A stretch of DNA of 64,000 nt from contig JBJETT010000012.1 in assembly GCA_051883455.1 (NCBI GenBank), positions 64,833-128,832 on the forward strand, in the 5' to 3' direction. The notes beneath the pieces are model-generated. The model did not search any database, was not told the DNA's origin, and worked only from the letters and a program-made list of their open reading frames with translations. Position 1 is the first letter of the stretch; every line of letters starts with the position of its first letter. This document shows positions 45,357 through 63,158 of this stretch, one piece after another. A program made the position numbers and the translations under genes. Source of the DNA: Christensenellales bacterium. GTDB taxonomy: Bacteria; Bacillota; Clostridia; Christensenellales; UBA3700.

Positions 45357-45699
45357 GGGGGTGTTACGGATTCGACAGGAGAAATGAGGACTGTGTAAGC
45401 ACGGCGAAGGCTCGGCTTCGTAAAAACGGAAATTAAATTTAAACGCTAATAATAACAAACAAATTGCCGTAGCTGCTTAATCGCTCGGCTGTCGTCCAAG
45501 GGCTCCACGACTTTGGAACGGCATCAGTCAGTGGAAAGTGCCTAAGGGAAGCACCCGTGCCCATAGGCGAGATTAGGGCTTGTTCGACGACGACTTGGTA
45601 GCGTTGGCGCCGTCGAAGACCAATCAACGCATACTAACCGTGTAGAAAGCCCAGTAAGAATTCTTTTGGACGCGGGTTCAACTCCCGCCATCTCCACCA
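45357..45699 (+). ncRNA. ssrA: tmRNA (transfer-messenger RNA)
   Basis: 5' GGGGGUGUUACGGAUUCGAC. 3' GGACGCGGGUUCAACUCCCGCCAUCUCCACCA, whose acceptor stem pairs with the 5' end. Tag ORF GCT AAT AAT AAC AAA CAA ATT GCC GTA GCT GCT TAA (45445-45480) encodes ANNNKQIAVAA. smpB lies upstream. Confidence 0.95.
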
Positions 45700-45703
45700 C
45701 TCT

Positions 45704-45748: not shown

Positions 45749-45775
45749 TTGTCCAGTTATTTGGCTCTTGCAGGT

Positions 45776-46912
45776 TTAGCATATAAACATTTCGATAAGC
45801 ATCTTTTTGGTATTAAGTTTTGGGGCGTTGGGCTTTTTATAATGCAAATGACCGATAATTGAACAAAAAGAAAAACCCTGACTGTCGTCAAGGTTTAATC
45901 GTGTTGGGTTGTTGAATATGATTTTTACTTTGTCTTCGTATAAGATTATTTCTTTCACCAGATGCTCAATCAGCATTTTTGGTTCGAGTTTTAGGGCTTC
46001 TATATAGAACTTACGCATTTCGCTTTCTGATATTTTTGTCTGTTGTCGACTTTTTTCTATTATGATTTCCTTTTCTAGACTATCTTGTTGTTGCTCAAGT
46101 TCCTTTAATCTTTGGATAGTGGTTCTTGTGGAAGCGCCGTTTTCGATTGCTTTTACGATATTGTTTAATGCTTTATCAACTTTACTTTTTTCTTTAGTTA
46201 GCATTGATAGGGTTTGATTCATCATTGTGTTTTCTTGCATTTTTAGCAAGGTTGGCACGATTTTGTTGATGATTTCAGGTTTGCTCATTTCTTTAATTAT
46301 GGCATTTATAATTAGTTCTTCCAAATACTCTTTGCGAACTTGCGATTTTAGACAACCGTTGTGGTCAATTTTTCTACCTTTACACTTGTAGTATCTAATT
46401 ACGCTACCGTTTTTTGCAGTTCCTGTTTCCGCAACAATCGGTCTGCCACAATATCCACAAGTTACTTTACTTCTCAATAAGTATTCGGTTTTTACGCTCC
46501 GTTTGCCATATCTATTTTTGTCTATCTTTGAACGGACGATAGAGTATATTTCCGTTGAGATAATTTGTGGATAAGTATTGTAGAAGACTTCGTCTTTATA
46601 TCGGTATACACCCGAATATTTTTCGTTTTTTAATATTCCGTATATGGTGTTTTGAGCAAACGGTTTTCCTTTGTGGTAAATACATTTATTGTTTAAGTTG
46701 TCGATAATTTCTCTAACGTAAGTGCCTTTTGCATATTCTTGGAAGATGTATCTAACGATTTCCGCTTCATTTTCGTCGATTATGATTTTTTGTTGGTTTA
46801 GTTTGTAGCCATAGGGTAGACCTCCACCGTGATAAAGTTCTTTCAATCTTGTTTCTCTCATTCCACGTCTAATCTTTTGCGAGAGTTCTGCCGAATAATA
46901 TTCTGCGTATCC
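45776..46912 (-). pseudogene. large serine recombinase, C-terminal 378 codons (recombinase domain and zinc ribbon), severed from its catalytic domain
   Basis: The frame stays open upstream of the track Met (46861) to 46939 and reads ...FDLLEGYAEYYSAELSQKIRRGMRETRL. There is no resolvase catalytic domain. The missing N-terminus is at 57866-58246. Confidence 0.8.
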
Positions 46913-46962
46913 TTCAAGTAGGTCAAATGGACATAATGCCTATTTTGAGGGTAGTTGGTTTG

Positions 46963-48588
46963 TTAAGTCGATAGAACCGAGTCAATATCAATCTTATAGT
47001 AGATATGAATCTCCTGCGGTTTTCCCGTAACCGTTTCTTTACCGCCGATGACAAGGTGATCGAATAACGCCAAACACATTTCACGGGTGAGCGTAGGAGA
47101 ATTAAAATACATTTTCAGCCTTAGGATAAATTCGTCCACGTCCGTCTTTACTTGCGTCAATTCTTCGATTCCCTGCGTAAGAGTGGTTACTTTCTCTTTC
47201 AGTTCCGTCTGTTCGGCGGTGTACTTTTCGATTAACTTCACGCACACGCTTTCGGGAATTATGCCTGCAACTTTTTCTTCAAACGCAGCTTCAATTAGCT
47301 TGTCAAGTTCGGTTAATCGCTTGTCGGCTCTTTTAAGATCTTTCTTGACGTCGGCTTGATTTCTGTCCGCAAGCGTCGCTTGCCGTTCCAGATACTGCCG
47401 TTTGAATTCCGCTTCGTGCCCTATAATCATTTTGGCTTTTGCGGCAATATCGTTTTTGACAATCTGTTCCAAAACGGGTACCGTAATGAAATGACTGAAA
47501 CAAGCAGACGATCCTAACCGTGATTTACTTCCGCAGTTGAAGTTGAAATACGGAATATCTTTCGGCATATTCCAACCAAGCCGCATTTTAGCGCCGCAGT
47601 CCGCGCAGAACATCAGTCCCGATAACGGGTGCATAAAACCTCTTGCAGTATGCTTTCCGTGTCCTATGGCTTTTTCGACCTCCTTGACTTTATCCCAGAG
47701 TTCTTTCGAGATAATGGCTGGGTGTGCGTTTTCGACGATAATCCATTCTTCTTCAGGACGGCGTTGCCACTTATGGTTCTTGTATGAAATTGTAGTTGAT
47801 TTGTGTTGAACTAAATTGCCGATATACGCCTGATTGTTCAGTAGAGTACGGAGAGCGGAAGTACTCCATAGGTGAGCAGAATTTCTGACGCCGTTTATGC
47901 CCGTCTTTGCAATGCGGTAATCGTTGGGCGTTAATACCTTTTCGACGTTGAGAATATCCGCTATCTTTCTCGGCGTTAAGTCGCTTGCCCGCATTTCAAA
48001 AATGCGTTTTACAATAGGTGCGGTTTCTTCGTTTATTTGCAGGGTACGTTTTTCGTCCGTTCCAAGTATGTAACCGTACGGCGGGTGGGACATTCCGTTT
48101 TTGCCTTCCTTTGCGTTCTTGATACGCACGGCGCGCAACTTCTTGCTTGTGGTTGCCGCCCACCATTCGTTAAACACGTTGGTAATCGGCATCATATCCA
48201 TAGCGGGAGTGTCTTTTTTCTCCGTGTCGATATTGTCCGATAGCGCCACAAACCGTATTCCGAACGTAGGGAAGACGTAATCGAGATACTGTCCTACCAT
48301 AATGTAGTTTCTTCCGAAACGGCTCATATCCTTTACGAGAATAGTATTGATAACCCCTTGCTTAGCGTCTTCGAGTAATCTCTTTACTCCCGGTCTTTCA
48401 AACGTGGTTCCCGAAATTCCGTCGTCCACATAAATATTATGGAGGGTCCAGCCCTGTTCTTCGATATACTCTGAAAGGATAGCCTTTTGGTTTTCGATAG
48501 ATAGCGATTCGCCAGCACGTTCGTCGTCTCGGCTTAATCTTACGTACATTCCGACAATGTAGTCTTTGTTGTTTTGCTTTGATTTCAT
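46963..48588 (-). CDS. large serine recombinase (TnpX/TndX-like)
   Basis: Catalytic domain YVRLSRDDERAGESLSIENQ...VKDMSRFGRN, a recombinase domain, a Cys-rich zinc ribbon (CADCGAKM...CGSK) and a C-terminal coiled coil. The start is moved to MKSKQNN at 48588 (AGGAGT RBS). Confidence 0.9.
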   Translation of the reverse strand: MKSKQNNKDYIVGMYVRLSRDDERAGESLSIENQKAILSEYIEEQGWTLHNIYVDDGISGTTFERPGVKRLLEDAKQGVINTILVKDMSRFGRNYIMVGQYLDYVFPTFGIRFVALSDNIDTEKKDTPAMDMMPITNVFNEWWAATTSKKLRAVRIKNAKEGKNGMSHPPYGYILGTDEKRTLQINEETAPIVKRIFEMRASDLTPRKIADILNVEKVLTPNDYRIAKTGINGVRNSAHLWSTSALRTLLNNQAYIGNLVQHKSTTISYKNHKWQRRPEEEWIIVENAHPAIISKELWDKVKEVEKAIGHGKHTARGFMHPLSGLMFCADCGAKMRLGWNMPKDIPYFNFNCGSKSRLGSSACFSHFITVPVLEQIVKNDIAAKAKMIIGHEAEFKRQYLERQATLADRNQADVKKDLKRADKRLTELDKLIEAAFEEKVAGIIPESVCVKLIEKYTAEQTELKEKVTTLTQGIEELTQVKTDVDEFILRLKMYFNSPTLTREMCLALFDHLVIGGKETVTGKPQEIHIYYKIDIDSVLST

Positions 48589-49194
48589 TCTTTTACTCCT
48601 TTGAATCAAAGCAGCCTGAATTTTCAATGTGCTATGATTATACCACGACACACCAAAAAATTCAAGCTACCCGATAATATATTTAGTTTGCAGAATTTTT
48701 CATTTCCGCAAGTACTTGTCTGAAAGCCAAATCGCCGAATACCTTTTTGAAGTCTTTGCCTCCGACGTAATGACTTACGACTACGTACTTTTTTCCGTTT
48801 ATGATCTCGGTATGAGAAGTAGTAGGAACGCTGTCTCTCCCGTTGATCAGCTGTGTTGATGCTCTGTTCGTAATTTTCCCTCCTATATCTTGTTAATTTG
48901 TCATTCATATTCAGTTTTCATATTTAATTCCTCCGTGTCGTCGCCGCAAACTTTGCTTTGAGCCGCCCTTTGGCACAGACGGCAACATTGCGTCGTTGCG
49001 GCTCCTCTTCCCACAAAAATATTTCATCTTTTTGCGGAAACCCTTTTGCACGATTCCTTAATGCGGTTTATCCGCATAACCGTTCAAACGGCATTTTTTC
49101 GTATAAAAAAGCCGTGATTACTCTTTCAATCCTTTTACCTTTTCACATTCATTAGGACGTATTCTTCACGGTCATTTTTTGTCTTATTCAGTTG

Positions 49195-50166
49195 TTACTT
49201 TCCGCCTTTACCGTTTGCGTTACTATGTACGTTAAAGGAAGAAGACGGGGTTTTCTTTTCTCTTGACTTCTTTAATAGTTCGTCGAATTCTTTGGGGTAT
49301 GCGCTCATCATATCCGCTACCATTCCGAACGCTGCGTCGTTTGCCTTGGCTTTGCGTTCCGCTTTTTGCAGTTGCGCAAACAGAGAATCGGTATCTCTGT
49401 TTTTGATAGCGATATACTCTTTGTAGGCGGCGTTTTGCGTTCGCAGACTTTCTATTTCCGCCTCAACAGCCTTCCGCATTTTGGGGATAGGCTTGTTTTT
49501 CGCATCTTCAACTACTTGAACAGTCTGCGTTAATTCGTCCAGCTCGGCTCTCTTTTTCTCGGTCTGTTCGTCGATTTCTCTTTCACGCTGTTCTGCACTC
49601 TCGATTATCTTCTTTGCCTTAAATTCTGCCGTGGAGAGGTGCTTTGCCTGACTGCCTTCCTTGCCTCGTTGTAATCCCCATTTCTTGCCGATTCTCTCGT
49701 GCAATTCGGTTTGGAGTTCGGCAAGTTTCTGCCTGTCAAAAAGACTTTTACTGCTCAACCGTCCTTGGTTGACAGGAATGAAATTGAGGTGCATATGCGG
49801 CGTGGTTTCATCCATATGTACGACTGCGGAAATCATATTTTCTTCCCCGTACTTGTCCGAAAAGAACTGCACACAGTCCTTGAAAAATTCCTGCTGTTCC
49901 CACGGGTATAGCCCCTTAAAAAACTCGCCGTCCGACGTTACTATAAACGAATTCATAAGAATAGCGTCCGAACGGATTTTGCGTTTTAAATCCAACTCCG
50001 ATAGCCTCTCGTTGATTATCTCCATATAGCTTTTCCTCGGCAATATAAGGTGATAATTGAGGTGCGTTCTCGAACTGTCTATCTGCGGATTGCTCGCCTG
50101 ATAGGTCTCGTCTCTTTCATTTTCCTCCTCGACAGGGCTGACTTCCTGCCGTTTATATTTTTCCAT
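49195..50166 (-). CDS. MobV-family relaxase (Mob/Pre plasmid recombination enzyme) with an atypical N-terminus
   Basis: NPQIDSSRTHLNYHL and the HMDETTPHMHLNFIP (HxDExxPHxH) motif, then a coiled-coil C-terminal half. The usual MSY...HNxR N-terminal segment is replaced (ENER). Confidence 0.8.
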   Translation of the reverse strand: MEKYKRQEVSPVEEENERDETYQASNPQIDSSRTHLNYHLILPRKSYMEIINERLSELDLKRKIRSDAILMNSFIVTSDGEFFKGLYPWEQQEFFKDCVQFFSDKYGEENMISAVVHMDETTPHMHLNFIPVNQGRLSSKSLFDRQKLAELQTELHERIGKKWGLQRGKEGSQAKHLSTAEFKAKKIIESAEQREREIDEQTEKKRAELDELTQTVQVVEDAKNKPIPKMRKAVEAEIESLRTQNAAYKEYIAIKNRDTDSLFAQLQKAERKAKANDAAFGMVADMMSAYPKEFDELLKKSREKKTPSSSFNVHSNANGKGGK

Positions 50167-50206
50167 ATGACATACTAAATAACTGATAATTTTTTCCTCC
50201 TACACC

Positions 50207-50271
50207 GCTTGCGCCTTGCACTATGCGCAAGCTCATCTCGGCTTGCCCAAACAGCGCACTGTGCTGTTTGG
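50207..50271 (-). other. candidate oriT (two inverted repeats immediately upstream of the relaxase gene)
   Basis: GCTTGCGC-N10-GCGCAAGC (50207-50232) and CCAAACAGC-GCACTGT-GCTGTTTGG (50247-50271). Confidence 0.4.
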
Positions 50272-50388
50272 AAAACTGCAAGCCTCGTCTCACAGAGCGA
50301 ACGGAACTTATGAAATAAGTGTAGTGAGTTACACCTATGATAAGGACATAGGTTTTGCTTCCCGTTTGCTTCCAAGTTGCTTGACATA

Positions 50389-51063
50389 TTAACCGCTTGC
50401 TCCTTTGCGACTGCGGAAGGTTTCAACTGCCTTATACAAAGACATTGAATGAGTATCTTCGTTTTCCTTTACAAACTCGTAAAGCTCGTTTACATCCACA
50501 CCGTCTAATATCGGATTCTGAAAACTTAAATTCCCCGTACAGCCGAACACTTTTAATTCATCTATCGTGTGTAAAGTAGTAGGAGTTTCCTGCTTAGGTT
50601 TCTTTGCTGTACCGCCTTTGCTTCCTGCCTTTCTCCGTTTAATGGAAGTGTTTAGAGTTAGCAACGTTAACTCGTAATACTTCTTGACTGTAGCAGATAA
50701 TTCCTTGGGTTGTCTGCCGTTGAACGCTAACTCGCATATTGCCTGCAAGTATTCCTTCGCTTTGTCATCTTCAAGGGATAGCATTTTGTTGTAATAGTTC
50801 CTGCGGAAAGTGAAGTGCTTCCATTTGGCGTTGTATGCCTTGGGCGTTTTGACTTGCAGTTCCTTTTCCCGTTGCGGAGCCAATACTTCCACAAGATCTT
50901 CCCAGATAAGTGCCTGAGTTTTGTCTGTAGGTGTTTCCTCGTTTCCGTCCAGCATATAGCGGCATATATGCCCGATAATGCTCTTTACGGTTGCCCCGTC
51001 CTCGTCCTTCACCAAATCCCAATATGGCTGGTAAAAAGTAAATTTGTCTTGTTTGTTTTCCAT
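50389..51063 (-). CDS. hypothetical protein of the mobile element
   Basis: 224-aa ORF in the same orientation as the mob gene. No motif recognised. Confidence 0.55.
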   Translation of the reverse strand: MENKQDKFTFYQPYWDLVKDEDGATVKSIIGHICRYMLDGNEETPTDKTQALIWEDLVEVLAPQREKELQVKTPKAYNAKWKHFTFRRNYYNKMLSLEDDKAKEYLQAICELAFNGRQPKELSATVKKYYELTLLTLNTSIKRRKAGSKGGTAKKPKQETPTTLHTIDELKVFGCTGNLSFQNPILDGVDVNELYEFVKENEDTHSMSLYKAVETFRSRKGASG

Positions 51064-51330
51064 TTCATTCTCCTTTTAATGTTTGATTTAATTACAAAAG
51101 CGGAACTGTTAATTACAGCTCCGCTTTTAGGTTGGTGTTATTCAGTTGTCTTTCAATTTGGTGGTGCTCGTGCCATGTCTTTCTCCTTTTTCGGTATAAG
51201 AAAAACCTGCAACAGACTTGTTACAGGTTTTATACCGTTTATTTTGTTGAAGGGGTCTTATCTACCCTCTCACTTATATAAGGACAACTACTGCCCGAAA
51301 TTATGCAAGTAATTTAAATAATTAAAAGTT

Positions 51331-52536
51331 TTATGCTTTCAACGTCTGCCAACGCTTTTTCTCCTTTGCCGGTAGACGGCTTATTATCTTTTCTATCTGT
51401 TCCGAAATGGGAGTAGTCTCGTCATCTGCCATAAAACGGACGTTTAACTGTTTCTTTGCAAAATCAATAAACTGATTTGTATTTCGTTCTTCAAGGTATG
51501 GCACAAATTTGGTTTCAAAATATTCCATAGGCTTCATTTTTGCCGCCTTAGCGACTTTTACAAGTTCCGTAATAAACTCTTTATATCTGTAATCTTTGGG
51601 TTTGGTAAAGCGTTCTTCACGCCGTTCAATCTCCTCTTGCAAGTGCAGGTACAGCCATTGATATTCAATGGGTAAATCGGTCATATAAGTCCAAAAATAA
51701 CCACGTATTGTCAGGTCCTTTAAGGTAAACATTTCCCGATATACGTTTCCCTGCGACAGGTCGTCCAACCGATAATATAGCAAGTTCTTAATGCCGTAAC
51801 GGTAGAGTTCAGTCTGCGTATAAAACCAACAGCGCAAACGTTCTTCTTCCTGCGGGAGTAGGCAGGAGAGGAAGTCGGTCATAACCACGTTTTCATTGTG
51901 CTCTAACTTACCAGTCTTGCGGTAGCGGTTGTAGAGGTAGTCTACCTCAATATCGATTGAGCCACGACTGCCGTCGTCTAAGGATTGCTTATCAAACGCC
52001 TCGGTAAGTTGTTGTAATAACCTCGATACCTGATATTGTTTTAACTTTAAATGCTTGGCTATTTCCTCTTGAGTGCAGTCGTATTTGTAGTATAAATCAT
52101 ACAACCTTTTACCGAATTTAGTCAGTTTAGAGTACAGACTATTCCTGTCAATATTATCGCAATTGTCCCTCTCGCAGGTTAGGCTTTTCTCGTCCGCTTG
52201 ATGTTCCATAGGGTCGTCTTCTTCGCCGTCCTCGTCCTCGTAAACAGGGAATCGGGCAAAGTAGCGGTCATCATAAAACTTTAAGTCGTGCCTTAATGCT
52301 TTCTTATTAAAGGCGTATAATGCCGTCCATTGTTCCTTGGTAACTTCGGTTTTAATTGTTATGCCGTCAACCTTTTGGAAGTAATAATACATACCTTCCG
52401 TCTTAGCCTTTTTCGGGTAACGGTTTAGATAATATTCCTCATTCTCCTGCCAGCAAAGCGGATCCTTTGCATGCAACGGCTCTCTTTTCTTCGCCTTAAT
52501 CTTCCTTTTCTCGTCCATTCCCGTCTTTTTACGCAA
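51331..52536 (-). CDS. hypothetical protein with a sigma-70 region-4-like helix-turn-helix
   Basis: 401 aa. The segment CTQEEIAKHLKLKQYQVSRLLQQL looks like an HTH. Confidence 0.55.
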   Translation of the reverse strand: MRKKTGMDEKRKIKAKKREPLHAKDPLCWQENEEYYLNRYPKKAKTEGMYYYFQKVDGITIKTEVTKEQWTALYAFNKKALRHDLKFYDDRYFARFPVYEDEDGEEDDPMEHQADEKSLTCERDNCDNIDRNSLYSKLTKFGKRLYDLYYKYDCTQEEIAKHLKLKQYQVSRLLQQLTEAFDKQSLDDGSRGSIDIEVDYLYNRYRKTGKLEHNENVVMTDFLSCLLPQEEERLRCWFYTQTELYRYGIKNLLYYRLDDLSQGNVYREMFTLKDLTIRGYFWTYMTDLPIEYQWLYLHLQEEIERREERFTKPKDYRYKEFITELVKVAKAAKMKPMEYFETKFVPYLEERNTNQFIDFAKKQLNVRFMADDETTPISEQIEKIISRLPAKEKKRWQTLKA

Positions 52537-52589
52537 ACATACGTTTATAATTTTTCTTGTATTATAAACCTATCTTCACAAAAAGTCAA

Positions 52590-52623
52590 CAGCCAAATGT
52601 CCACGTTCATGGACATTTGGCTG
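52590..52623. promoter_or_regulatory. perfect 14-bp inverted repeat in a divergent promoter region (candidate TetR operator)
   Basis: CAGCCAAATGTCCA-CGTTCA-TGGACATTTGGCTG, between the divergent 401-aa gene and the TetR gene. Confidence 0.4.
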
Positions 52624-52749
52624 TTTGTGGTGAGTTTTTTATGATTTTGTATAAGTAATAAGTGAGAAGTTAAGCGGAATCACTTGACATACGACCGTTC
52701 GGTAGGTATAATTATATTATGATATGATAGCAGATAAGGAGTATGCGCA

Positions 52750-53364
52750 ATGGATAAAGGAAATACAAAGCGTGAAATTCTGAATGTGGCGCTTGATTTA
52801 TTTTCAACGCAGGGATTCGAGGCGACTTCGATTTCACAGATAGCAGAAGCCGTCGGGATTCGCAAGGCGTCGCTTTACAGTCATTTCGAGAGCAAGCAGG
52901 CTGTTTTGGACGCTTTGATGCTTCAGGTGTTGGAAGGATATGCAAAGCAATCACTCTTTGCCAAGCCGAAACGGCAAGTTGGCGACGGCGCTTGTCCTAT
53001 AACCTGCGACGAGGTTGTAAGTCTGGTAAAAAGCCAGATAAATTATATTCTTCACGACCCCTTTATCCGTAAAGCCAGAAAGATGCTTACTATCGAACAG
53101 TTCAGGAATCAGGAACTTGCTGACCTTCAAACCAAGCAGAACTATACCGACGTAATGCATTATTTTACCAACCTTGTGATTTGTCTGCAAGAGCAAGGCG
53201 TTATAGACGGCGACGACCCCGAAATCATGGCGGCACAGTTCTGTCTGCCGATTACCGTATGGATAAACCTATGCGACCGTGAACCGGACCGAGAGACGGA
53301 AGTTATGGAATTGGTGGATAAGCATATTCGGCAGTTTTTTAAACTCTATCAGCCAAAGGCTTAG
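52750..53364 (+). CDS. TetR/AcrR family transcriptional regulator
   Basis: N-terminal KREILNVALDLFSTQGFEATSISQIAEAVGIRKASLYSHF. Confidence 0.85.
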   Translation: MDKGNTKREILNVALDLFSTQGFEATSISQIAEAVGIRKASLYSHFESKQAVLDALMLQVLEGYAKQSLFAKPKRQVGDGACPITCDEVVSLVKSQINYILHDPFIRKARKMLTIEQFRNQELADLQTKQNYTDVMHYFTNLVICLQEQGVIDGDDPEIMAAQFCLPITVWINLCDREPDRETEVMELVDKHIRQFFKLYQPKA

Positions 53365-53411
53365 TGAATTTATGAGTAAATACGATGCTTTGTGGGTGCG
53401 GAGGGGTTATT

Positions 53412-53615
53412 ATGACAATGTGGAATCCGTGGAGAGGCTGTAAAAAATGCAGTGACGGGTGTCTGCATTGCTATATTCATAAAGACGATGCCAAGCGCAA
53501 TATAAACACAAACGACATTTTAAGAACCAAAGATTTTTCTAAACCCACAGAGAAATTGAAAAACGGCAATTACAAAATGAAAAGCGGAATGGAGAGGTTC
53601 TGGCGGCGGCACTGA
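53412..53615 (+). pseudogene. 5' remnant of a DUF5131 (phage Gp37/Gp68-like) gene
   Basis: MWNPWRGCKKCSDGCLHCYIH matches the family N-terminus, but the ORF stops after about 67 aa (the family is about 250 aa by my recollection). Confidence 0.5.
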
Positions 53616-53725
53616 GAATATGAATACGTTATGCAACTCGGTCGAATAATTATCACGTCTAAACAACTCTACACTATAACACCAAGGTTGACTGTTATGT
53701 TATAATTATTTAAAAGGTGTGGATT

Positions 53726-54460
53726 ATGACGACGTATAGAACAGCCGAGGTTGCCGAAATAATCGGAATACACCCGAACACGGTACGGCTATATGAAAAA
53801 TTAAAACTCATTTCAAAGCCCGAAAGGCTACAAAACGGCTATCGGGTATTTACAGACCTTCATATTCAGCAATGCCGACTAGTGCGAATTGCATATCAGG
53901 TAGAAATATTGCAAAACGGTTTACGAAAGAAAATTACTGCAATAATAAAGACCTGCGCTACGGGAGATTTTGACACTGCCGTTTTACTGACGGACGAATA
54001 CCTTAATCAGATAGAAAGAGAACGTATCAACGCCGAAGAAGCCGTTGAAATCGTTAAACAACTGCTATCTTGCCCAAAAGTAACCAACACGCAATTTTTA
54101 AAGCTGAAAGAAGTATCGAAAGTCGTTGGCGTTTCTACGGACTCTATACGGAATTGGGAAATGAACGGGTTGCTCACCGCCAAGAGAAAAGAGAACGGGT
54201 ATCGCATTTACACGGACGACGACGTGCAACGGCTTAAAGTAATTCGCACATTGCGGTGCGCTAACTATTCCTTGGAAGCGATTTTACGACTATTGAATCA
54301 GTTGTCCAAAAACCCTGATACGGATATATTAACCACGCTGAATACCCCGAAGCAGTCGGACGATATCGTTTCCGTTTGCGACAGGCTGATTGTTTCTCTG
54401 TCTGCGGCTGAGAAAAACGCTAATAGAATGAGAGATATGCTGACAAATATGAAAAATTAA
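53726..54460 (+). CDS. MerR family transcriptional regulator with two MerR HTH domains
   Basis: YRTAEVAEIIGIHPNTVRLYEKLKLI...NGYRVFT and LKEVSKVVGVSTDSIRNWEMNGLL...NGYRIYTDDDV. Confidence 0.8.
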   Translation: MTTYRTAEVAEIIGIHPNTVRLYEKLKLISKPERLQNGYRVFTDLHIQQCRLVRIAYQVEILQNGLRKKITAIIKTCATGDFDTAVLLTDEYLNQIERERINAEEAVEIVKQLLSCPKVTNTQFLKLKEVSKVVGVSTDSIRNWEMNGLLTAKRKENGYRIYTDDDVQRLKVIRTLRCANYSLEAILRLLNQLSKNPDTDILTTLNTPKQSDDIVSVCDRLIVSLSAAEKNANRMRDMLTNMKN

Positions 54461-54472
54461 GGAGAATTTAAA

Positions 54473-55188
54473 ATGAAATACATAAAAAGCGAAAAATACA
54501 ATACCCCTGCATTGCAGGCTAAAATAATGGGTCCCAACCCTATTAAATTAGAGGAAGAATTATTAATTAATCACCAAATACCGGAAGGCGCCGTTGTCTG
54601 CGATTTAGGAAGCGGACAGGGCTTAACAAGCGTATTCCTTGCTAAAGAATACGGCTTTACCGTATATGCAGCAGACTTATGGAGCAATCCTGAAGATAAC
54701 CGTAGGTTTTTTGACGAAATGGGGCTGGATAAAATCAAATTATCCCCGTCAAGGCAGACGCTACGGATTTACCGTTTGAAAAGGAATTTTTCGATGCGGT
54801 TGTCAGTATAGATTCTTATAACTATTTTGGAAGAGACGAACGCTATCTTGACGATAACCTTTTACCGTTTATTAAAAAAGGCGGATATATCTACGTTGCT
54901 ATTCCGGGGATGAAGAAAGACTGTCACGATAATTTACCGCAGGAGCTTTTATTGTCCTGGACGCGAGAACAGCTTGAGTATATGCACGATATTGACTATT
55001 GGACTAATATATTTAAAAAAAGTAAGGGAGCTGAAATAATTTCAATTAAAGAAATGGAAAGCAACGATGAAGCGTGGGCAGATTGGTTGAAGCAAGACAA
55101 TGAATACGCTATTGGCGATAGAAAAGCAATGGAAGCAGGCGGCGGCAAATATTTAAATTCTATTGCGATTGTAATGAGAAAAAAATAA
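54473..55188 (+). pseudogene. class I SAM-dependent methyltransferase, frameshifted
   Basis: VCDLGSGQGLTSVFLA (motif I) in the first frame. After GATAAAATCAAATTATCCCC (about 54729-54748) the protein continues in another frame as IIPVKADATDLPFEKEFFDAVVSIDSYNYFG...IPGMKKD, joining ORF 54910-55188. Confidence 0.75.
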
Positions 55189-55232
55189 TTCGGTGTAGTG
55201 TGAATAACACTCAATCCGAGAGATGATAACGT

Positions 55233-55991
55233 ATGGTTGGAATATATTTAAGCGGTACGGGAAATACAAAGCACTGTATTGAAAAACTAATAAACTTATT
55301 GGATGTCTCTGCAAGGACAATACCCTTAGAGAGCGAAGACGTTATTGAAGAAATAGAAAATAATACCACCGTAATTTTGGGATATCCGATACAGTATTCT
55401 AACGCACCTTATATGGTTAGAGAGTTTATAAAGAAAAATAAGGCGTTATGGAACGGTAAAAAGGTATTCTGTGTGGCAACAATGGGGTTATTCAGCGGAG
55501 ACGGTGCCGGCTGCAGCGCAAGATTGCTGAAAAAATACGGCGCAACGATTTTGGGCGGGCTACATATCAAAATGCCTGATTCTGTCTGCGACAACAAAGC
55601 TCTAAAAAAGACGATTGAACAGAATAAGTCTATCGTAATGCAGGCTGATGCAAAAATAGAACTCGCCGCACGGCAAATCGGGGAAGGTAACTACCCCAAA
55701 GACGGATTATCTTTCTTCTCTCACTTTGCAGGACTATTTGGGCAAAGACTTTGGTTTTACAGGAAAACAGCCGGATATACGGATAAATTAAAAATTAGCG
55801 AAAAGTGTATCGGTTGCGGACTATGTGCTTCTCAATGCCCGATGAAAAATATATCGATTATAGACGGGAAAGCGGTAGCTAATAATAAGTGTACGATGTG
55901 TTATAGGTGTATAAGTCGGTGTCCCGAAAAAGCCATTACTCTGATTGGTGACGAAGTAATAGAACAATGCCGATATGAGAAATACTGTTAA
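55233..55991 (+). CDS. EFR1-like flavodoxin-fold protein with a 2x[4Fe-4S] ferredoxin domain
   Basis: N-terminal IYLSGTGNTKHC, and C-terminal CIGCGLCASQCP...CTMCYRCISRCP. Confidence 0.65.
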   Translation: MVGIYLSGTGNTKHCIEKLINLLDVSARTIPLESEDVIEEIENNTTVILGYPIQYSNAPYMVREFIKKNKALWNGKKVFCVATMGLFSGDGAGCSARLLKKYGATILGGLHIKMPDSVCDNKALKKTIEQNKSIVMQADAKIELAARQIGEGNYPKDGLSFFSHFAGLFGQRLWFYRKTAGYTDKLKISEKCIGCGLCASQCPMKNISIIDGKAVANNKCTMCYRCISRCPEKAITLIGDEVIEQCRYEKYC

Positions 55992-56184
55992 CCAAACCAC
56001 AATTTAGGTACTTCATAATAAATAATGCAGAGCTGACAAACCAACGATTTATCATGGTTTTTCGGCTCTGTTTTAAGTTTTTAATATTACGAGACAATAA
56101 AAAGAAACTTTTTTACCCTCCACTTTACCACCAACGTTCTCGTCGGTGGTATTCTTTTTACAAATAAAAAAAGGAGACGATATT

Positions 56185-56907
56185 ATGCAAACTGTAATCA
56201 AAGTGGAGAGGTTGTCAAAGACATACGGCAATCTGCTTGCGATAGACAATCTTAGTTTGTCTGTAGAACGCGGTACTGTTTACGGGCTGCTCGGCGCAAA
56301 CGGTGCAGGAAAGAGCACTACCATAGAGTGCATTTTAGGGACAAAAACAGCGGACAGCGGTACGGTAAGCGTTTTAGGGCATAGTCCCAAAAAGGACAGA
56401 AAAAAGCTTTTTCAAAAGGTAGGCGTACAATTTCAGGAGTGTGACTACCAGCCTGAAATCAAGGTTTACGAACTGTGCGAGGAGATTGCCTGCCTTTACA
56501 AAAATCCGTCCGATTGGAAGGAGCTGTGTGTTAAGTTCGGTATAGGGGACAAGTTAAAAAGCACGGTAAAAAATCTTTCAGGCGGTCAAAGACAACGGCT
56601 GTTTATCGTCCTTGCACTTATTCCCAATCCACAACTTGTATTTCTTGACGAGCTGACGACAGGGCTTGACGCAAAGGCACGAAGAGAAGTCTGGAAAATT
56701 TTATCCGACTTAAAAAACAAGGGTTTAACTATCTTTCTGACTTCACATTTTATGGATGAGGTCGAAGCGCTCTGCGACGAGATTTGTATTTTGAAACAAG
56801 GGAAATCCGTATTTCAAGGTACGGTCGAACAGGCAAAAAGTATATGCGATTGCAATAGTTTTGAAGATGCTTACCTTATTCTTTCAGGAGAGGAGGAAGA
56901 AAGATGA
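56185..56907 (+). CDS. ABC transporter ATP-binding protein
   Basis: Walker A GANGAGKSTT, signature LSGGQRQR, Walker B LVFLDELTTGLD. The start is moved to MQTVIKVERL (AAGGAGA RBS). Confidence 0.9.
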   Translation: MQTVIKVERLSKTYGNLLAIDNLSLSVERGTVYGLLGANGAGKSTTIECILGTKTADSGTVSVLGHSPKKDRKKLFQKVGVQFQECDYQPEIKVYELCEEIACLYKNPSDWKELCVKFGIGDKLKSTVKNLSGGQRQRLFIVLALIPNPQLVFLDELTTGLDAKARREVWKILSDLKNKGLTIFLTSHFMDEVEALCDEICILKQGKSVFQGTVEQAKSICDCNSFEDAYLILSGEEEER

Positions 56908-57644
56908 AATCATTTATTATGCTATTTAAAAATGAATTTAAACTTAATATCCGTAACATGAATATGGTCATCTTTGCGGTGATTATACCTATAGTCGTTC
57001 TGGTTATTCTCGGTTTGATATACGGAACGACGCCTGTAACCGACGGTGTGACATATACGTTTATGGAACAGTCGTTCGGCGCACTTTGTACTATAAGTAT
57101 GTGTGCAGGGGGCTTGATGGGATTGCCCCTTGTCGTATCGGAATACAGAGAACGTAAAATATTAAAACGGTTTAAGGTCACGCCCGTCAGTCCTTTAAAA
57201 CTACTTGCCGTTGAAGTCTTGATTTACGTTGTATATTGTATCGTGTCCGTTATTACGCTCGCTCTCGTTTCGCTTATATGGAAGGTAAGAATAAGCGGTT
57301 CCTGGTTGGCATTTTTGGGAAGCTGGATATTGACGATGGTTTCTACTTTAAGTGTCGGTATGATGGTCGGCGGCGTGGCTAAAAACACAAAGAGTGCAAG
57401 CGTAATTGCCTGTACTCTATACTTCCCGACTTTGATATTTTCGGGTGCGACGCTTCCGCTTGAGGTGATGCCAAACGTTATGCAAAGTATAGTAAAATTC
57501 TTTCCGTTGACGCAGGGTATTCAGTTGATGAAGTCGACTTTTCTTGGTTTGCCGATTGACAATATTTGGCTCCCTATCGTGGTTATGTCAGCCGTTACGA
57601 TTATCTGCACAGGTATAGCAGTAAAATTTTTCAGGTGGGAATAA
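56904..57644 (+). CDS. ABC-2 type transporter permease
   Basis: Six hydrophobic segments, with an ATGA overlap onto the ATPase gene. Confidence 0.8.
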   Translation: MKSFIMLFKNEFKLNIRNMNMVIFAVIIPIVVLVILGLIYGTTPVTDGVTYTFMEQSFGALCTISMCAGGLMGLPLVVSEYRERKILKRFKVTPVSPLKLLAVEVLIYVVYCIVSVITLALVSLIWKVRISGSWLAFLGSWILTMVSTLSVGMMVGGVAKNTKSASVIACTLYFPTLIFSGATLPLEVMPNVMQSIVKFFPLTQGIQLMKSTFLGLPIDNIWLPIVVMSAVTIICTGIAVKFFRWE

Positions 57645-57778
57645 ATGAAAAAAATACGCAAAAATCCGACCGTACCTTAACAGATTGACTTTTTTGCACA
57701 TATTATTTCTCGCACATAATTAATTAAATTAATGCTTATGTAAAGATATCCATTTTTCAAGTGGAAGGATTAAGAAAA

Positions 57779-57805
57779 GGTCGGACAAAACGTCCGACCT
57801 TTTAT
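57779..57805. terminator. hairpin terminator near the right end of the nested element
   Basis: GGTCGGAC-AAAAC-GTCCGACC flanked by an A-run and TTTTA. Confidence 0.6.
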
Positions 57806-57865
57806 ACATTGATTTGGCTGCTTAAATTCTGATTTTAAATTATTGTGTCCATTTGAATGCTTGAA

Positions 57866-58246
57866 CCCCTCAAACATGCTTTCTAAAATGATTGCCTCGG
57901 GAGTATCGGGTATATACTCGGTAGCGGATACAACCCTTACGCCGTTGTCTTTGAGCGTTTTCTTATGTTTTGTGGCTTCATATTTGTTTCGGCTGAAACG
58001 GTCAAATTTGTAAACGAGGACCATATTGAAATCGTGTCTTTTACTATCCTCAATCATTTGGCGAAAGTCGGGGCGATTGTCGTTGGTGCCCGTCATCGCT
58101 CTATCTATGTAGGTTTTGAGGACGAGTATATCGTTGTTTTTGGCATACTCGTTGCAAACACGGAGTTGTCCTTCTATGGATTGCTCCGATTGGCTGTCGC
58201 TCGAATAGCGAGCATATATTACTGCTGTTTTGGTTTTGTTTTCCAT
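57866..58246 (-). pseudogene. large serine recombinase, N-terminal 127 codons (resolvase catalytic domain), severed by the nested element
   Basis: AVIYARYSSDSQSEQSIEGQ...VYKFDRFSRN...PEAIILESMFEG, after which the track ORF (to 57770) reads into element DNA. It continues logically at 46912. Confidence 0.8.
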
Positions 58247-58283
58247 AATTTATTTTCTCCTTATATTTAGTTTTTGTTAGTTT

Positions 58284-58427: not shown

Positions 58428-58435
58428 TATTTGTT

Positions 58436-59350
58436 TTAGTTGCTCTTAGGCAACTTATCTATGACTTCTTTGCTCACTTTGCCAAGTATTTCGCCTTCGT
58501 TCATACAGGTGAAGTTGTCAAATAGCAATACTTTTCTATCGTCCACTCCGTAAGGACAAGCCACGTCTTCGTCCAATACGTCCGAAAGAAAATAGGTCGG
58601 CAATTTACCGCCATAGACTAAACGTTCGCCAGATTTTTCCATATACTTGGTTATGTATTTTGCCGCATTGGCAATGTCATCTTGCGTGGCAATATCTTTG
58701 AAGTCGTTTCTTCCAAAGTGTTTGAGAAAATGACTGTTTTGGCAGGTGGTTTGCATACGGTGGTTGCGTGTGTCGTAATCTCGCATCTTTTCCAACTCTC
58801 CAATCATCTTTGGGATATGGAATATTCCATGGAAATGTAACCTGTTGGTGTCGTTGCCACGCTCCCACACTCCTACGTACTTCCAACCGTTTCTTGCCAC
58901 AAGGTGTTTGAGTGTGTTGGATAGCTTCTTCCTAAACGATGCTTCCGTATGAAGTTCGTCCGAGTAGGTAAACGTACAAAAGAAATCCCAATCTTGTAGT
59001 CGCAGTTTTCGCATTAGCCGTACTTTGCGTTTTATGGCGTTGGTTTTTGCTCTTTCTACGCTTTCATCCACATAAGCGTTCAATTCTTCTTTGCTATCAA
59101 AATGTTCTTTTAATTCTTGTTTTATATGAGCCTTACGTTCTCTCTTTGGCAAAGATTGACTTTCCTTGTATGCCTTTTCAAAGCGTTCTTTTGTGGTGTT
59201 GGTTGAAGTATCAACCATCTGTTCTTTTTGCGTTTGTTGCATTGGTTTGACGACACGTCTTTTGCGTCCTTTCTTGCTTGGGAACGCTCCTTTAGGTATA
59301 CCTATGTAGTGACTGCCGTCAAAGTAGATTTTCATATCTCGGTTATTCAT
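58436..59350 (-). CDS. rolling-circle replication initiator (HUH endonuclease, two-tyrosine phiX-A-like type)
   Basis: Motif 1 FFCTFTY, motif 2 LHFHGIFHIP, motif 3 AKYITKYMEK (YxxKYxxK). Confidence 0.75.
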   Translation of the reverse strand: MNNRDMKIYFDGSHYIGIPKGAFPSKKGRKRRVVKPMQQTQKEQMVDTSTNTTKERFEKAYKESQSLPKRERKAHIKQELKEHFDSKEELNAYVDESVERAKTNAIKRKVRLMRKLRLQDWDFFCTFTYSDELHTEASFRKKLSNTLKHLVARNGWKYVGVWERGNDTNRLHFHGIFHIPKMIGELEKMRDYDTRNHRMQTTCQNSHFLKHFGRNDFKDIATQDDIANAAKYITKYMEKSGERLVYGGKLPTYFLSDVLDEDVACPYGVDDRKVLLFDNFTCMNEGEILGKVSKEVIDKLPKSN

Positions 59351-60394: not shown

Positions 60395-60583
60395 ATGACT
60401 TATGCCGAAAAAATTAAACAATCGAGAGAATCGCTTTTAATGACTCAAAGCGAATTTGCTGCCGAAATAGGTGTTAATTCTATTACCGTTTGCAGGTGGG
60501 AAACAGGGAAAACCGAACCAAGCATAAAGGCTAAAAAGGCATTTAGAGCCTTGTGTGAGCGTAAAGGCATCGATTTCAAATAA
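60395..60583 (+). CDS. XRE-family helix-turn-helix protein (possible R-M controller)
   Basis: 62 aa. LLMTQSEFAAEIGVNSITVCRWETGKTEP. Confidence 0.7.
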   Translation: MTYAEKIKQSRESLLMTQSEFAAEIGVNSITVCRWETGKTEPSIKAKKAFRALCERKGIDFK

Positions 60584-60587
60584 AACA

Positions 60588-61010
60588 ATGGCTAAAACAC
60601 AAGAGGAAATCACAAAAAATATGCGAAGCAACAAAAGCAAGGACACAAAACCCGAGTTCATGTTGCGTAAGGAATTGTGGAAACGCGGTTTACGTTACAG
60701 GAAAAATTACAAGAAGGTAATCGGGAAACCGGATATTGTATTTGTAAGCCGAAAGATAGCAATATTCGTAGACGGCAAAATGTGGCACGGCTACGATTGG
60801 GAAAAACAGAAAAACGACTTCAAATCTCATTGCGACTTTTGGATTCCGAAAATCGAACGGAATATTGAGCGAGACAAAGAAGTAACGGAACAACTGCAAA
60901 ACGAAGGTTGGACTGTGTTGCGATTTTGGGATTTCGAGATAAAGAAAAACCTTTCCGATTGCGCGGACAAAATCGAGAAGGTTTACAACGAACGGAGAAA
61001 CGGAGATTAA
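60588..61010 (+). CDS. vsr: very short patch repair endonuclease
   Basis: TKPEFMLRKELWKRGLRYRKN...GKPDIVF...IAIFVDG..WHG...VLRFWDFEI. The start is moved to MAKTQEE at 60588. Confidence 0.85.
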   Translation: MAKTQEEITKNMRSNKSKDTKPEFMLRKELWKRGLRYRKNYKKVIGKPDIVFVSRKIAIFVDGKMWHGYDWEKQKNDFKSHCDFWIPKIERNIERDKEVTEQLQNEGWTVLRFWDFEIKKNLSDCADKIEKVYNERRNGD

Positions 61011-61012
61011 AA

Positions 61013-62014
61013 ATGTTAAAAAGTATTGATTTATTCGCAGGTATCGGTGGAATTCGACTCGGCTTCGAAAACGCTTTCGGCGACGAACTGAAAACGGTAT
61101 TCGTCAGCGAATGGGACGAATACGCCCAAAAAACATATAAGGCGAATTTTCATGATGATTTCGAAATAGCCGGCGATATAACAAAAATAAAGGAAACGGA
61201 TATTCCCGATTTCGATATTTGTCTTGCAGGATTTCCTTGCCAGGCGTTCAGTCTTGCGGGGCAGCGCAAAGGATTTAAGGACGATTATAAAGGAATGTCG
61301 CGCGGCACGTTGTTTTTCGACGTGGCGAGAATTTGCGCCGAAAAGAAACCGAAAGTAATCTTTTGTGAAAACGTAAAGGGCTTGACTATCCACGACAAAG
61401 GCAGAACTTTTGAAATTATCACCGAAACGCTTAAAGAAATCGGCTACACTCCGTTCGAACAAATATTAAACAGCCGTAATTTCGGCGTTCCGCAAAACAG
61501 AGAGCGTATTTATATCGTGGCTTTCAGAAACGATATCGCGCCGAAAGAATTTGTCTTTCCGACTAAGACCGACGACACGAAACGTATTCGCGATATTTTG
61601 GAAGAAAATCCCGTTCCCGCCAAGTATTATCTCAGCACTTGCTATATGGATACGCTTATTCGTCATAAAGAGCGCCACGCCGCGAAAGGACACGGTTTCG
61701 GGTATGAAATCCGAGATCTCGACGACGTATCGGGCGCAATCGTATGCGGCGGTATGGGTAGAGAAAGAAACTTGATTGTCGATAAGCGACAAACGAATTT
61801 AACCCCCACCACCCACATCAAAGGCGAAATAAATAAAGACGGCATTCGTAAAATGACTCCGAGAGAATGGGCAAGATTGCAAGGCTTCCCCGACGACTAC
61901 AAATTCGTGTTGGCTGACGTGCATTTGTATAAACAATTCGGAAACAGCGTAACAGTTCCCGTAATACAGGCAATAGCGGAAAAAATCAAAGAGGTGCTCG
62001 ACAAAAATGACTGA
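61013..62014 (+). CDS. DNA (cytosine-5)-methyltransferase, M.HpaII-like
   Basis: DLFAGIGG (I), GFPCQAFS (IV), ENVKGL (VI), QNRERIYIV (VIII), GNSVTVPV (X). The variable region KYYLSTCYMDTLIRHKERHAAKGHGFGYEI and GIRKMTPREWARLQGFPDDY parallels my recollection of M.HpaII. The start is at 61013, not 60908. Confidence 0.85.
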   Translation: MLKSIDLFAGIGGIRLGFENAFGDELKTVFVSEWDEYAQKTYKANFHDDFEIAGDITKIKETDIPDFDICLAGFPCQAFSLAGQRKGFKDDYKGMSRGTLFFDVARICAEKKPKVIFCENVKGLTIHDKGRTFEIITETLKEIGYTPFEQILNSRNFGVPQNRERIYIVAFRNDIAPKEFVFPTKTDDTKRIRDILEENPVPAKYYLSTCYMDTLIRHKERHAAKGHGFGYEIRDLDDVSGAIVCGGMGRERNLIVDKRQTNLTPTTHIKGEINKDGIRKMTPREWARLQGFPDDYKFVLADVHLYKQFGNSVTVPVIQAIAEKIKEVLDKND

Positions 62015-63158
62015 ATCGATAAAAGGAAAGAAACTTAATAAAGGCGAATGGGCGGAGTTTTACGTTATGTTAAAACTGCTCGGAGAAGGCAAGTTGTACA
62101 CTGCGGACAATTTGTTGCAGAAAAATTACAAAAGTTATCTTGATATTTTGAAAATCATTCGCCAAGAATGCGAAAGCCAGGTTTTGGAATACGTTATCGA
62201 CGAAGAAAAATCAACGGTTACGATTAAACCTCAAGATTCCGAAACCGTTTTTGCCGTTATTCCGACAAGCGAGTTCAACAAGAACGCAAGCGCGCTGTTT
62301 AACGATATTAAAAACGCACGAGGTGCTTCCGTTCCGGCACCGGATTCGGTGTGCGATTTTGCAAGCGTAATTTACGTAAGCAAACCGAAAGCTCCCGCCG
62401 TAAAGGCATTGAAAAAGCAGTTCGGCGGCAAAAACGATATTTTTATCGAAGTAAGGGACGGTCAAACGGCAATCGTTTCGATAATGGGCTTTTCGATTAA
62501 GTCGAAATTCGGACAAAACCCCACTTTGTTCAATGCAGGTTCTTCTTCGCAATATTTGTACAAATTGTCCGGTTGCGACGACACGATGATGGCGGAATTC
62601 AACGATATATCGGAAAACGGCGGTCGCGGCTGGGCAAAATGCAAAGAGTATTTGAAAAATCACTCCGTTACGATGGAATTTGCAAGGACTCAAAACCCGA
62701 TTTACGAAAATAACTTGTTTCTCATAAGAGAATCGATGGCTAAAATAATGGCTTGGTGCGTTAAAGACAGGTTGATTTCGGGTACGGACAATCATAACGT
62801 CAAAGAAACAGTGGAAAGAATGGCGGTCGAAAATCCTCTTAACGTTCCGAATCCGCAAGTTTATTACGAAAAGGCGTTAAAAGACTTTTTGATTGCGGGA
62901 TTTACAGGAATGACGGCAGGAAACGTTTGGGACGGCAAAGAACAAGTCAACGGCGGTTACATAGTCGTAACGGACGACGGTGATATTCTCTGCTATCATT
63001 CCAACGATAGAGAAGGTTTTAGAGATTATTTGTATAGGAATACGTTCTTCGAATATGTAAGCGCGGAAAAATATTGTTGGAGTCGTATCAAAAAAATCGA
63101 CGGGGAATATTATTTGCCGCTTAACGTATCCGTCAGATTTAATTCGAGAACGAGATAA
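62007..63158 (+). CDS. type II restriction endonuclease, HpaII family
   Basis: NKGEWAEFYVMLKLLGEGKLY, GFSIKSKFGQNPTLFNAG and GGYIVVTDDGDILCYHSNDREGFRDYLYRNT...LNVSVRF parallel my recollection of R.HpaII. Confidence 0.8.
   Translation: MTESIKGKKLNKGEWAEFYVMLKLLGEGKLYTADNLLQKNYKSYLDILKIIRQECESQVLEYVIDEEKSTVTIKPQDSETVFAVIPTSEFNKNASALFNDIKNARGASVPAPDSVCDFASVIYVSKPKAPAVKALKKQFGGKNDIFIEVRDGQTAIVSIMGFSIKSKFGQNPTLFNAGSSSQYLYKLSGCDDTMMAEFNDISENGGRGWAKCKEYLKNHSVTMEFARTQNPIYENNLFLIRESMAKIMAWCVKDRLISGTDNHNVKETVERMAVENPLNVPNPQVYYEKALKDFLIAGFTGMTAGNVWDGKEQVNGGYIVVTDDGDILCYHSNDREGFRDYLYRNTFFEYVSAEKYCWSRIKKIDGEYYLPLNVSVRFNSRTR

Follow-up and report, generated by a model that had tools for sequence, protein, structure and literature searches.

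A large serine recombinase (LSR) gene of 504 codons is interrupted inside codon 127 by a second mobile element in a 64-kb stretch of a Christensenellales bacterium genome (contig JBJETT010000012.1), the whole of which is here called the window. The interrupted gene is the integrase of an island at the ssrA (transfer-messenger RNA, tmRNA) site, and this island is referred to as the outer element. The inserted or inner element is a Tn4451-like integrative mobilisable element (IME), which carries an LSR of its own. According to the interpretation preferred here, to which a probability of about 0.85 is assigned, the inner element integrated at a 2-bp GG core in codon 127 of the outer LSR gene, and the empty target site (attB) of its whole clade is DNA encoding a conserved motif of the LSR catalytic domain. 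The structural claims taken together are held with about the same confidence. Comparison loci are referred to by numbers with the prefix L.

The split recombinase gene and its natural empty site

The two parts of the outer gene lie on the minus strand on either side of the inner element. The open reading frame (ORF) starting at 58246 reads MENK..., MENKTKTAVIYARYSSDSQ...PEAIILESMFEG and then runs into foreign sequence, which appends 31 codons before the stop at 57770; its own part encodes most of the catalytic domain, including Ser15 and the YARYS motif. On the opposite side, the minus-strand frame from 46933 to 45776 reads ..CPFDLLEGYAEYYSAELSQKIRRGM..., that is CPFDLLEG-YAEYYSAELSQKIRRGM..., and continues through the recombinase and zinc-ribbon parts to the stop. 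The C-terminal fragment contained in this frame includes the core GG (46911–46912; CC on the plus strand) and comprises the remainder of the catalytic domain, the Recombinase domain, the zinc ribbon and a coiled coil, matching residues 124–504 of the repaired protein at 99.5% (tblastn). Neither of the outer fragments contains stops or frameshifts. Because the C-terminal fragment has no in-frame start, the outer LSR gene is disrupted, and the outer recombinase is inactivated. The translations thus bear out an earlier reading of the window sequence (the original prediction), in which the frame at 57866–58246 was taken to encode only the resolvase catalytic part and that at 45776–46912 only the recombinase and zinc-ribbon part, and in which the insertion was said to inactivate the outer recombinase.

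When the fragments were joined at any point of the shared core, a single in-frame ORF of 504 aa was obtained, as had been predicted. In Pfam the repaired protein gives one Resolvase match at 8–150, unbroken over the joint, followed by Recombinase at 173–259 and Zn_ribbon_recom at 271–331. A catalytic domain with the serine nucleophile, a Recombinase domain and a zinc beta-ribbon, the parts by which an LSR is recognised, are accordingly found in one polypeptide that is colinear over the joint. Searches with the repaired protein retrieved thousands of full-length relatives. Colinearity with full-length serine recombinases, proposed earlier as a check on the rebuilt gene, was also found in an alignment with 11 homologues, which was gap-free at the joint.

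An uninterrupted allele, for which a search had been suggested along with the original prediction, was found in L001. This allele (positions 139–1653) shows 98.5% nucleotide identity to the gene repaired in silico over 1515 nt with 0 gaps, the 23 nucleotide differences including 17 synonymous ones, and its protein (P0002) is 99% identical. It is intact across the joint and there reads GAAAGCATGTTTGAGGGATACGCAGAATATTAT (attB ..ATGTTTGAGGGATACGCAGAA..), which is exactly the predicted attB; for the repaired site the predicted sequence is ..GAAAGCATGTTTGAGGGATACGCAGAATA... Three further loci, L002–L004, contain alleles 89% identical to the outer gene in the same chromosomal neighbourhood. As L001 and L002–L004 all carry the identical attB, the predicted empty site is real.

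The empty site in L001 and L002 is TTTGAGGGATAC, and the two junctions in the window are TTTGAGGGGTTC (attL) and CTTGAAGGATAC (attR). Around the crossover these read TTTGAG-GG-ATAC in attB, TTTGAG-GG-GTTC in attL and CTTGAA-GG-ATAC in attR. The sole 2-bp overlap compatible with all three is the GG at 57867–57868 and 46911–46912, and it is unique because the natural attB constrains the comparison of attL with attR. The original prediction had allowed the crossover anywhere in TTGA-GG: the statement that any join point gives an in-frame ORF stands, whereas the natural attB narrows the crossover itself to GG. A crossover at GA, as in Tn4451, was rejected, since it would give GAGGGATAC where attR reads GAAGGATAC. 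Also the junctions of L011 and L018 have only GG in common. Between the cores the insert measures 10,954 bp; one core copy brings it to 10,956 bp.

Ends of the inner element

The 11-mer TGTCCATTTGA is present in exactly two copies in the window, inverted and each 11 nt from a junction, against about 0.03 exact matches expected by chance. The two ends of the inner element agree at 21 of about 25 positions, so that the imperfect terminal inverted repeats described earlier were found again. The predicted circular joint is ..TGTCCATTTGACCTACTTGAA-GG-GTTCAAGCATTCAAATGGACA.., and the arms deduced for the attachment site of the element (attP) are symmetric at 17 of 30 positions, including a perfect block of 11 bp, in agreement with the dyad symmetry that had been ascribed to this joint. 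The attB arms are without nucleotide dyad symmetry (5–10 of 30 positions).

A structural model of LSR att sites predicts a copy of the outer attP motif, shifted by 5 bp, in the attB arms. Such a copy was sought by eye in the attB arms, with no convincing match.

The end beside the inner LSR gene (46913–46933, minus strand) reads ..TGT CCA TTT GAC CTA CTT GAA GG in the frame of the target, and the element in this way re-creates the L-L-E-G codons that it displaces. Across loci the same end encodes (D/G/E)L(L/F/S)EG, and at the window copy there is no in-frame start codon upstream. With this re-creation attP mimics the B arm of attB.

Target sites of related elements

Related elements were collected in two ways. 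The genome loci (n = 61), drawn from one genome per species, were found by homology to the inner LSR alone, and in a scan of metagenomes the element end was the only query, the flank playing no part in retrieval. The hosts of the genome loci are uncultured or recently cultured gut Clostridia, the records being mostly labelled Christensenellaceae, Coproplasma, Borkfalkia or Pumilibacter; the cultured Pumilibacter intestinalis CLA-AA-M10 contains two of the related copies (L023, L025). At 36 of the 40 assessable genome loci (LSR at least about 66% identical), another LSR gene follows the element end directly, entered at the same position and with frame and orientation unchanged. The element end in these loci is ..TTATGTCCATTTG-N8-GAAGG (also given as ..ATGTCCATTTG-N8-GAAGG), and the codons of the flank specify (M/Y/L/I/C)(A/N)(E/Q)YYS(A/E/V)EL..K..RG. 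The metagenome scan yielded LSR flanks at 38 of about 46 genuine ends. Altogether 74 of about 86 related ends are located at the same LSR codon (..EG-xAEYYS), making 75 loci with the window, and these include 61 distinct 30-nt flanks. The insertion in the window is an instance of a family-wide target preference and not a chance nesting.

The targets are diverse. At 90% identity, the 32 target fragments that were 100 aa or longer formed 29 clusters; in pairwise comparison their protein identity had a median of 38% and extremes of 27 and 97%. Strong constraint on the motif at the protein level would explain why sites are available in such divergent LSR genes, with orientation and register always the same. 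Both ends could be located in 10 loci, with element sizes of 6.0–11.7 kb. In-silico excision at GG restored ORFs of 469–654 aa in seven loci besides the window, and all five of the restored ORFs tested had a full Resolvase domain over the joint, a Recombinase domain and a Zn ribbon, with no DUF4368.

Insertions have been recurrent, recent and independent. The terminal 900 bp of the element agree at 90% or more in 91 pairs of loci. In 82 of these pairs the target flanks either cannot be aligned or agree at less than 80%, and several elements with 100% identical ends occupy different LSR genes.

Identity between the inner and outer LSRs is 24%, and the target motif is absent from the inner one, which reads NVFNEWWAATTSKK where the targets read SMFEGYAEYYSAELSQK, and the recombinase gene of the element is therefore not itself a target. 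In a sister clade (L037–L047, L052), with LSRs 53–58% identical to the inner LSR, the element end is ..GTCCATTT..GCCACCGCAAGGGA(A/G)AA just downstream of the LSR stop, and the flanks are variable and encode no recombinase. The sister clade thus has a different target specificity, and, since both its ends and its flanks differ, the specificity for LSR genes belongs to the clade of the inner element.

Flanks other than LSR genes were seen at L016, L036, L049, L058, L074/L081, L101, L105, L110, L118 and L119/L123. The flank of L016 encodes an IS3-like transposase; those of L074/L081 and L101 weakly resemble the consensus target, which the others do not. These flanks may represent secondary or off-target sites, later rearrangements or assembly breaks.

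Gene content of the inner element

The features of the window that concern the two elements are listed in Table 1. The 541-aa serine recombinase that had been reported to abut the left end of the insert was located there. Among solved structures it is matched best by the TnpX N-domain 2mhc (E = 1e-28), and the YxRLSRDD motif is conserved. No other recombinase was found by Pfam in the inner element, so the inner LSR is presumably its sole enzyme of integration and excision. By its position the 94-aa ORF upstream might encode an accessory or directionality protein.

Table 1. Features of the nested elements in the window
Feature	Position	Strand	Description and evidence
tmRNA (ssrA) gene	45357..45699	+	ARAGORN; Rfam RF00023, 167 bits; terminator at about 45704-45748
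Outer LSR, C-terminal fragment	45776..46912	-	Last base of codon 127 to codon 504 and stop; translation, Pfam, tblastn
Inner-element end beside its LSR (P arm)	46913..46945	.	Minus strand TTATGTCCATTTGACCTACTTGAA, then GG core; conserved in 37 genome loci
Inner LSR	46963..48588	-	541 aa, TnpX/TndX type; Pfam Resolvase, Recombinase, Zn ribbon, DUF4368; YVRLS intact
ORF upstream of inner LSR	48624..48908	-	94 aa; no Pfam or NCBIfam match
MobV (Mob/Pre) relaxase	49195..50166	-	Pfam Mob_Pre 2.7e-52; NCBIfam MobV 4e-54, 183 bits (cutoff 100)
Two backbone genes	50389..52536	-	224-aa DUF6291 protein; 401-aa protein with a sigma-70 region-4 / winged-helix-like helix-turn-helix segment
Inner-element cargo	52750..57644	+	TetR, DUF5131 fragment, MerR, two small ORFs, EFR1-family flavodoxin/ferredoxin, ATP-binding cassette (ABC) ATPase, ABC-2 permease; Pfam, NCBIfam
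Inner-element far end (P' arm)	57836..57866	.	Minus strand GTTCAAGCATTCAAATGGACACAATAA after GG core; conserved in 10 loci
Outer LSR, N-terminal fragment	57867..58246	-	Codons 1-126 and first two bases (GG core) of codon 127
Rep-like gene (REP_ORF2-G2P)	58436..59350	-	Pfam; blastp
Outer-element cargo	60395..64000	+	Helix-turn-helix regulator, Vsr endonuclease, C5 methylase, HpaII-type restriction enzyme, second C5 methylase; Pfam

The LSR and relaxase backbone is common to many of the related loci, the MobV relaxase gene being kept in related elements, and the two backbone genes show about 89% nucleotide identity to the closest relatives, L006, L007 and L033. The cargo half is unique to the window copy and absent from the related loci examined, as judged from blastn coverage. 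Within it, the 76-aa ORF at 53385–53615 matches only positions 9–49 of the 243-position DUF5131 profile (phage Gp37/Gp68-like) and is a gene remnant. A megablast search of the whole inner element against the plasmids of PLSDB gave no match.

With its TnpX/TndX-type LSR, its MobV relaxase and a 2-bp core at both junctions and the empty site, the inner element has these traits of Tn4451/Tn4453. Two further traits of that group, low target-site specificity and the tnpV/tnpY/tnpW genes, were not found. Homologues of tnpV, tnpY and tnpW were looked for among the small ORFs at 48624–48908 and 50175–50426, which had no Pfam or NCBIfam match; as these proteins are short, a distant homology is possible.

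The outer element and its chromosomal setting

The stop codon of the outer LSR gene lies 77 nt downstream of the gene for tmRNA; ssrA is a classic integration hotspot. The G+C content falls from about 0.47 to about 0.40 at the boundary, with 0.38–0.42 in the outer cargo region compared to 0.45–0.50 in the chromosome to the left. The outer Rep is 51–54% identical to the Rep proteins of Rep and LSR elements located at other chromosomal sites in other genomes (L127, L128; blastp). The region 60555–64000 is a compact defence block, in which the motifs FCGIGG, PCQPFS and ENV were recognised in translation. The ATG of the second C5 methylase gene overlaps the endonuclease stop (TAATG), and as the window ends within this methylase gene, the outer element must extend past 64000.

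The remaining window is ordinary Firmicutes chromosome with a polysaccharide biosynthesis cluster, SpoIIE, TilS, SmpB and MetA. Amid the polysaccharide-synthesis genes, positions 18886–20979 encode a 697-aa protein with BspA-type leucine-rich repeats and a phage baseplate Gp10 C-terminal domain. Exact look-ups with MetA and the inner LSR, aimed at an unoccupied tmRNA site or at another context, returned only short contigs of SRR30616779 with the same arrangement.

The outer recombinase gene is disrupted in a second, independent way in L002. At positions 1–2100 of this locus, and also in L003 and L004, a different element composed of Rep, a small ORF (sORF) and a DUF4368 LSR gene (Rep–sORF–DUF4368-LSR) abuts approximately codon 4 of the outer LSR gene (compare window 58200–58440). 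The abutting end, ..AGTGTCCATAAA, is the LSR-proximal one, and positions 1–2095 are 85% identical to the LSR-proximal part of the complete elements in L127–L131. An explanation of L002–L004 as a 1.9-kb 'LSR-only' insertion at the outer start codon was rejected, as L002 1–2095 corresponds at that 85% identity to part of L127–L131. The other copies of the Rep–sORF–DUF4368-LSR element (L127–L131) are not inside LSR genes. A scan of viral contigs for the LSR of the L002-type element gave nothing useful. In L130/L131 (5626–7800), an LSR gene of the outer type was found about 0.8 kb downstream of the Rep–sORF–DUF4368-LSR element, called as pieces of 173 aa (Resolvase) and 215 aa (Zn ribbon); it is another broken LSR beside a DUF4368 element.

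Furthermore, a 30-bp part of the ssrA terminator (45721–45750) is present in two copies in L002 (3585–4760 compared to window 45700–45776). Between the copies lies a 1.1-kb segment, missing from the window, with a DUF3825 gene; it resembles another small insertion or deletion in the att region on the tmRNA side.

Alternative explanations

Several observations weigh against the interpretation of a specific and still reversible insertion. All the data are assemblies, mostly metagenome-assembled genomes. About 12 of the 86 genuine ends have non-LSR flanks, most of them unlike the consensus target. No uninterrupted allele of the outer LSR is itself intact: L001 has a nonsense codon at K95 (AAA to TAA at codon 95), which may mark a real pseudogene or a read error, and L002–L004 are without the first codons of the gene. 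Since these other alleles are defective, the outer island is perhaps decaying regardless of the insert, and its immobilisation by the insert may then be of little practical consequence. A degenerate attP pattern, used to look for the excised circular joint, had 0 matches among the assembled contigs of metagenomes and viruses. Finally, no conjugation genes were found in the visible part of the outer element (58.2–64 kb), which contains only Rep, helix-turn-helix and restriction-modification genes.

It is unlikely that the nesting is real and fossil, with an inner element that no longer excises and an outer LSR gene that is a permanent pseudogene. The missing circular joint, the defects in the other alleles with their suggestion of a decaying island, and the truncated DUF5131 gene of the cargo all point this way. 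They are opposed by a full-length inner LSR with its catalytic motif, by ends that both fit the family consensus, and by the state of the outer fragments, which are free of stops and frameshifts and differ from L001 largely at synonymous sites. Near-identical relatives have, besides, moved recently. The window copy can probably still excise.

A one-off landing of a low-specificity Tn4451-like transposon that by chance struck a recombinase gene is very improbable. Tn4451-type LSRs have been described as of low specificity and relaxed around a dinucleotide, the DUF4368 clade has been classed as 'multi-targeting', and the roughly 12 ends in non-LSR flanks would fit such behaviour. Against it stand the 74 of about 86 independently retrieved ends at one codon, frame and orientation of LSRs down to 27% identity. 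When scored against the flank profile, random genomic 30-mers had a 99.9th percentile of -12, compared to a median of +37 for the real flanks. Because the many targets represent one gene family at one conserved motif, the enzyme is better called specific for a dispersed conserved site than relaxed.

An assembly artefact, in which contigs were misjoined at sequence common to recombinase genes, is still harder to credit. The window and most of the comparison loci are probably metagenome assemblies, and the junction falls within a conserved motif of a multi-copy gene family. However, the element and its targets have only GG to GAAGG in common at the junctions, far too short a shared sequence for an assembler misjoin to be likely. 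The ends also carry inverted repeats specific to the element, the halves combine into a perfect ORF, the joint of which is identical in every base to a natural allele, and the same architecture occurs in dozens of unrelated assemblies. The attR junction recurs in the Logan assembly of SRR30616779 (L125), a run whose independence from the source of the window is not established. Equally hard to credit is a single ancient insertion, inherited vertically with element and target co-diverging, for which the like position and orientation in all cases would speak, since 82 of the 91 pairs with closely similar ends have unrelated targets, empty alleles of the window's target exist, and cargo and size (6.0–11.7 kb) vary.

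Proposed mechanism and significance

According to the preferred interpretation of site-specific insertion, the inner element (46913–57866) was integrated by conservative serine-recombinase recombination at the 2-bp GG core. The attB of the clade would be the DNA that encodes ..(L/F)EG-(M/Y)(A/N)(E/Q)YYS(A/E)EL.. in the catalytic domains of non-DUF4368 LSRs, a motif presumably located in the alpha-E helix region of serine recombinases. The inner LSR would recognise the motif-coding DNA, and constraint at the protein level would keep the target available in many elements. By inserting, the element splits and silences the recombinase gene of its host element, and precise excision by the inner LSR, with no directionality factor, would restore the 504-aa ORF; TnpX-type enzymes have been reported to need no such factor. 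The outer element may be immobilised by the insert, and the island would be locked in place as long as the inner element remains inserted, a reversible lock of this kind being rated at slightly less than even odds. The MobV relaxase might let the excised circle transfer through the conjugation pore of a co-resident element. This hitch-hiking rationale is unsupported here, because the visible outer element is without conjugation genes.

With similar odds, the members of the clade could be dedicated recombinase-gene homers. Their attB would be a motif that nearly all non-DUF4368 LSRs must keep, and they would colonise prophages, islands and integrative and conjugative elements (ICEs) of very divergent lineages and render them reversibly immobile. 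Such a relationship would amount to hyperparasitism or to a conflict between elements, and the outer element would be free to move only once the inner one had excised.

Mobile elements that attack the mobility genes of others would have a simple means of pinning prophages and islands in place, or of letting them move only when the parasite excises, and this is relevant to the fixation of islands in gut bacteria. The insertions also explain why some recombinase genes in metagenome-assembled genomes are split or 'pseudogenised', and such genes can be recognised by the rule ..GAAGG-xATGxxGARTAYTAYTC... The natural target sequences, of which at least 61 are different, form a ready data set on DNA recognition by one LSR.

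Comparison with known systems

The closest counterparts are Tn4451/Tn4453 and Tn6104 of Clostridia, which combine the TnpX LSR with a Mob relaxase. The inner element resembles them in its TnpX-type LSR with DUF4368, its MobV/Pre relaxase, the outward-facing recombinase gene at one end, the 2-bp crossover and the imperfect inverted ends, and Tn6104 also in a cargo of regulators and an ABC transporter. It differs from Tn4451 in that the core is GG instead of GA, the target is a specific LSR motif instead of a relaxed one, and no TnpV/TnpY/TnpW homologues were detected; unlike those of Tn4451/Tn4453, its hosts are uncultured gut Clostridia. Nesting as such has a precedent in Tn6104–Tn6106, TnpX-type mobilisable transposons that lie inside an ICE, Tn6103 (PMC3158075).

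Streptococcal serine-integrase IMEs disrupt traG, maff2 and snf2 of ICEs of the Tn5252 superfamily, and their excision has been proposed to restore the function of the host element (Coluzzi et al. 2017, PMC5357655). The likeness lies in site-specific integration within, and disruption of, a conserved gene of another integrative element, here in the window and 74 loci. The target here is, however, a recombinase gene and not a conjugation gene, and, as the motif is common to LSRs with identities as low as 27%, many unrelated elements are potential hosts. Furthermore, the streptococcal host elements are ICEs, whereas the visible outer part in the window (58.2–64 kb) is without conjugation genes.

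Other LSR elements are known to split genes that precise excision recreates, namely skin with SpoIVCA in sigK, SPbeta with SprA in spsM, and the fdxN element with XisF. The recreation of the ORF (here in silico) and a similarity to XisF in NCBIfam are common to these and to the present case. Unlike the element in the window, which interrupts the gene of a mobile element, they lie in developmental genes of the host, and their excision follows a developmental cue in a terminal cell. Insertion aimed at the serine-recombinase systems of other elements is also shared with the res-site hunters Tn5053/Tn402, DDE transposons for which insertion takes place close to res sites and requires the resident resolvase. 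In contrast to these, the coding sequence of the recombinase gene is here itself the recombination partner of an LSR.

The DUF4368 clade of LSRs was described as 'multi-targeting', with related recombinases in many target-gene clusters less than 50% identical, and was left out of the target-gene enrichment analysis (Durrant et al. 2022, PMC10083194). The domain architecture is the same as that of the inner LSR, and the targets here are one gene family at one conserved motif. Part of this clade can thus be reinterpreted as site-specific, which bears on the choice and engineering of LSRs as tools for genome integration. No report of an LSR gene as a dedicated target was found in the literature, the library searched being incomplete. 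Elements of this type, and the targeting of other mobile elements in principle, are already known. The new aspect is that the target is the integrase gene itself, struck at a motif of the catalytic domain that spans LSRs down to 27% identity.

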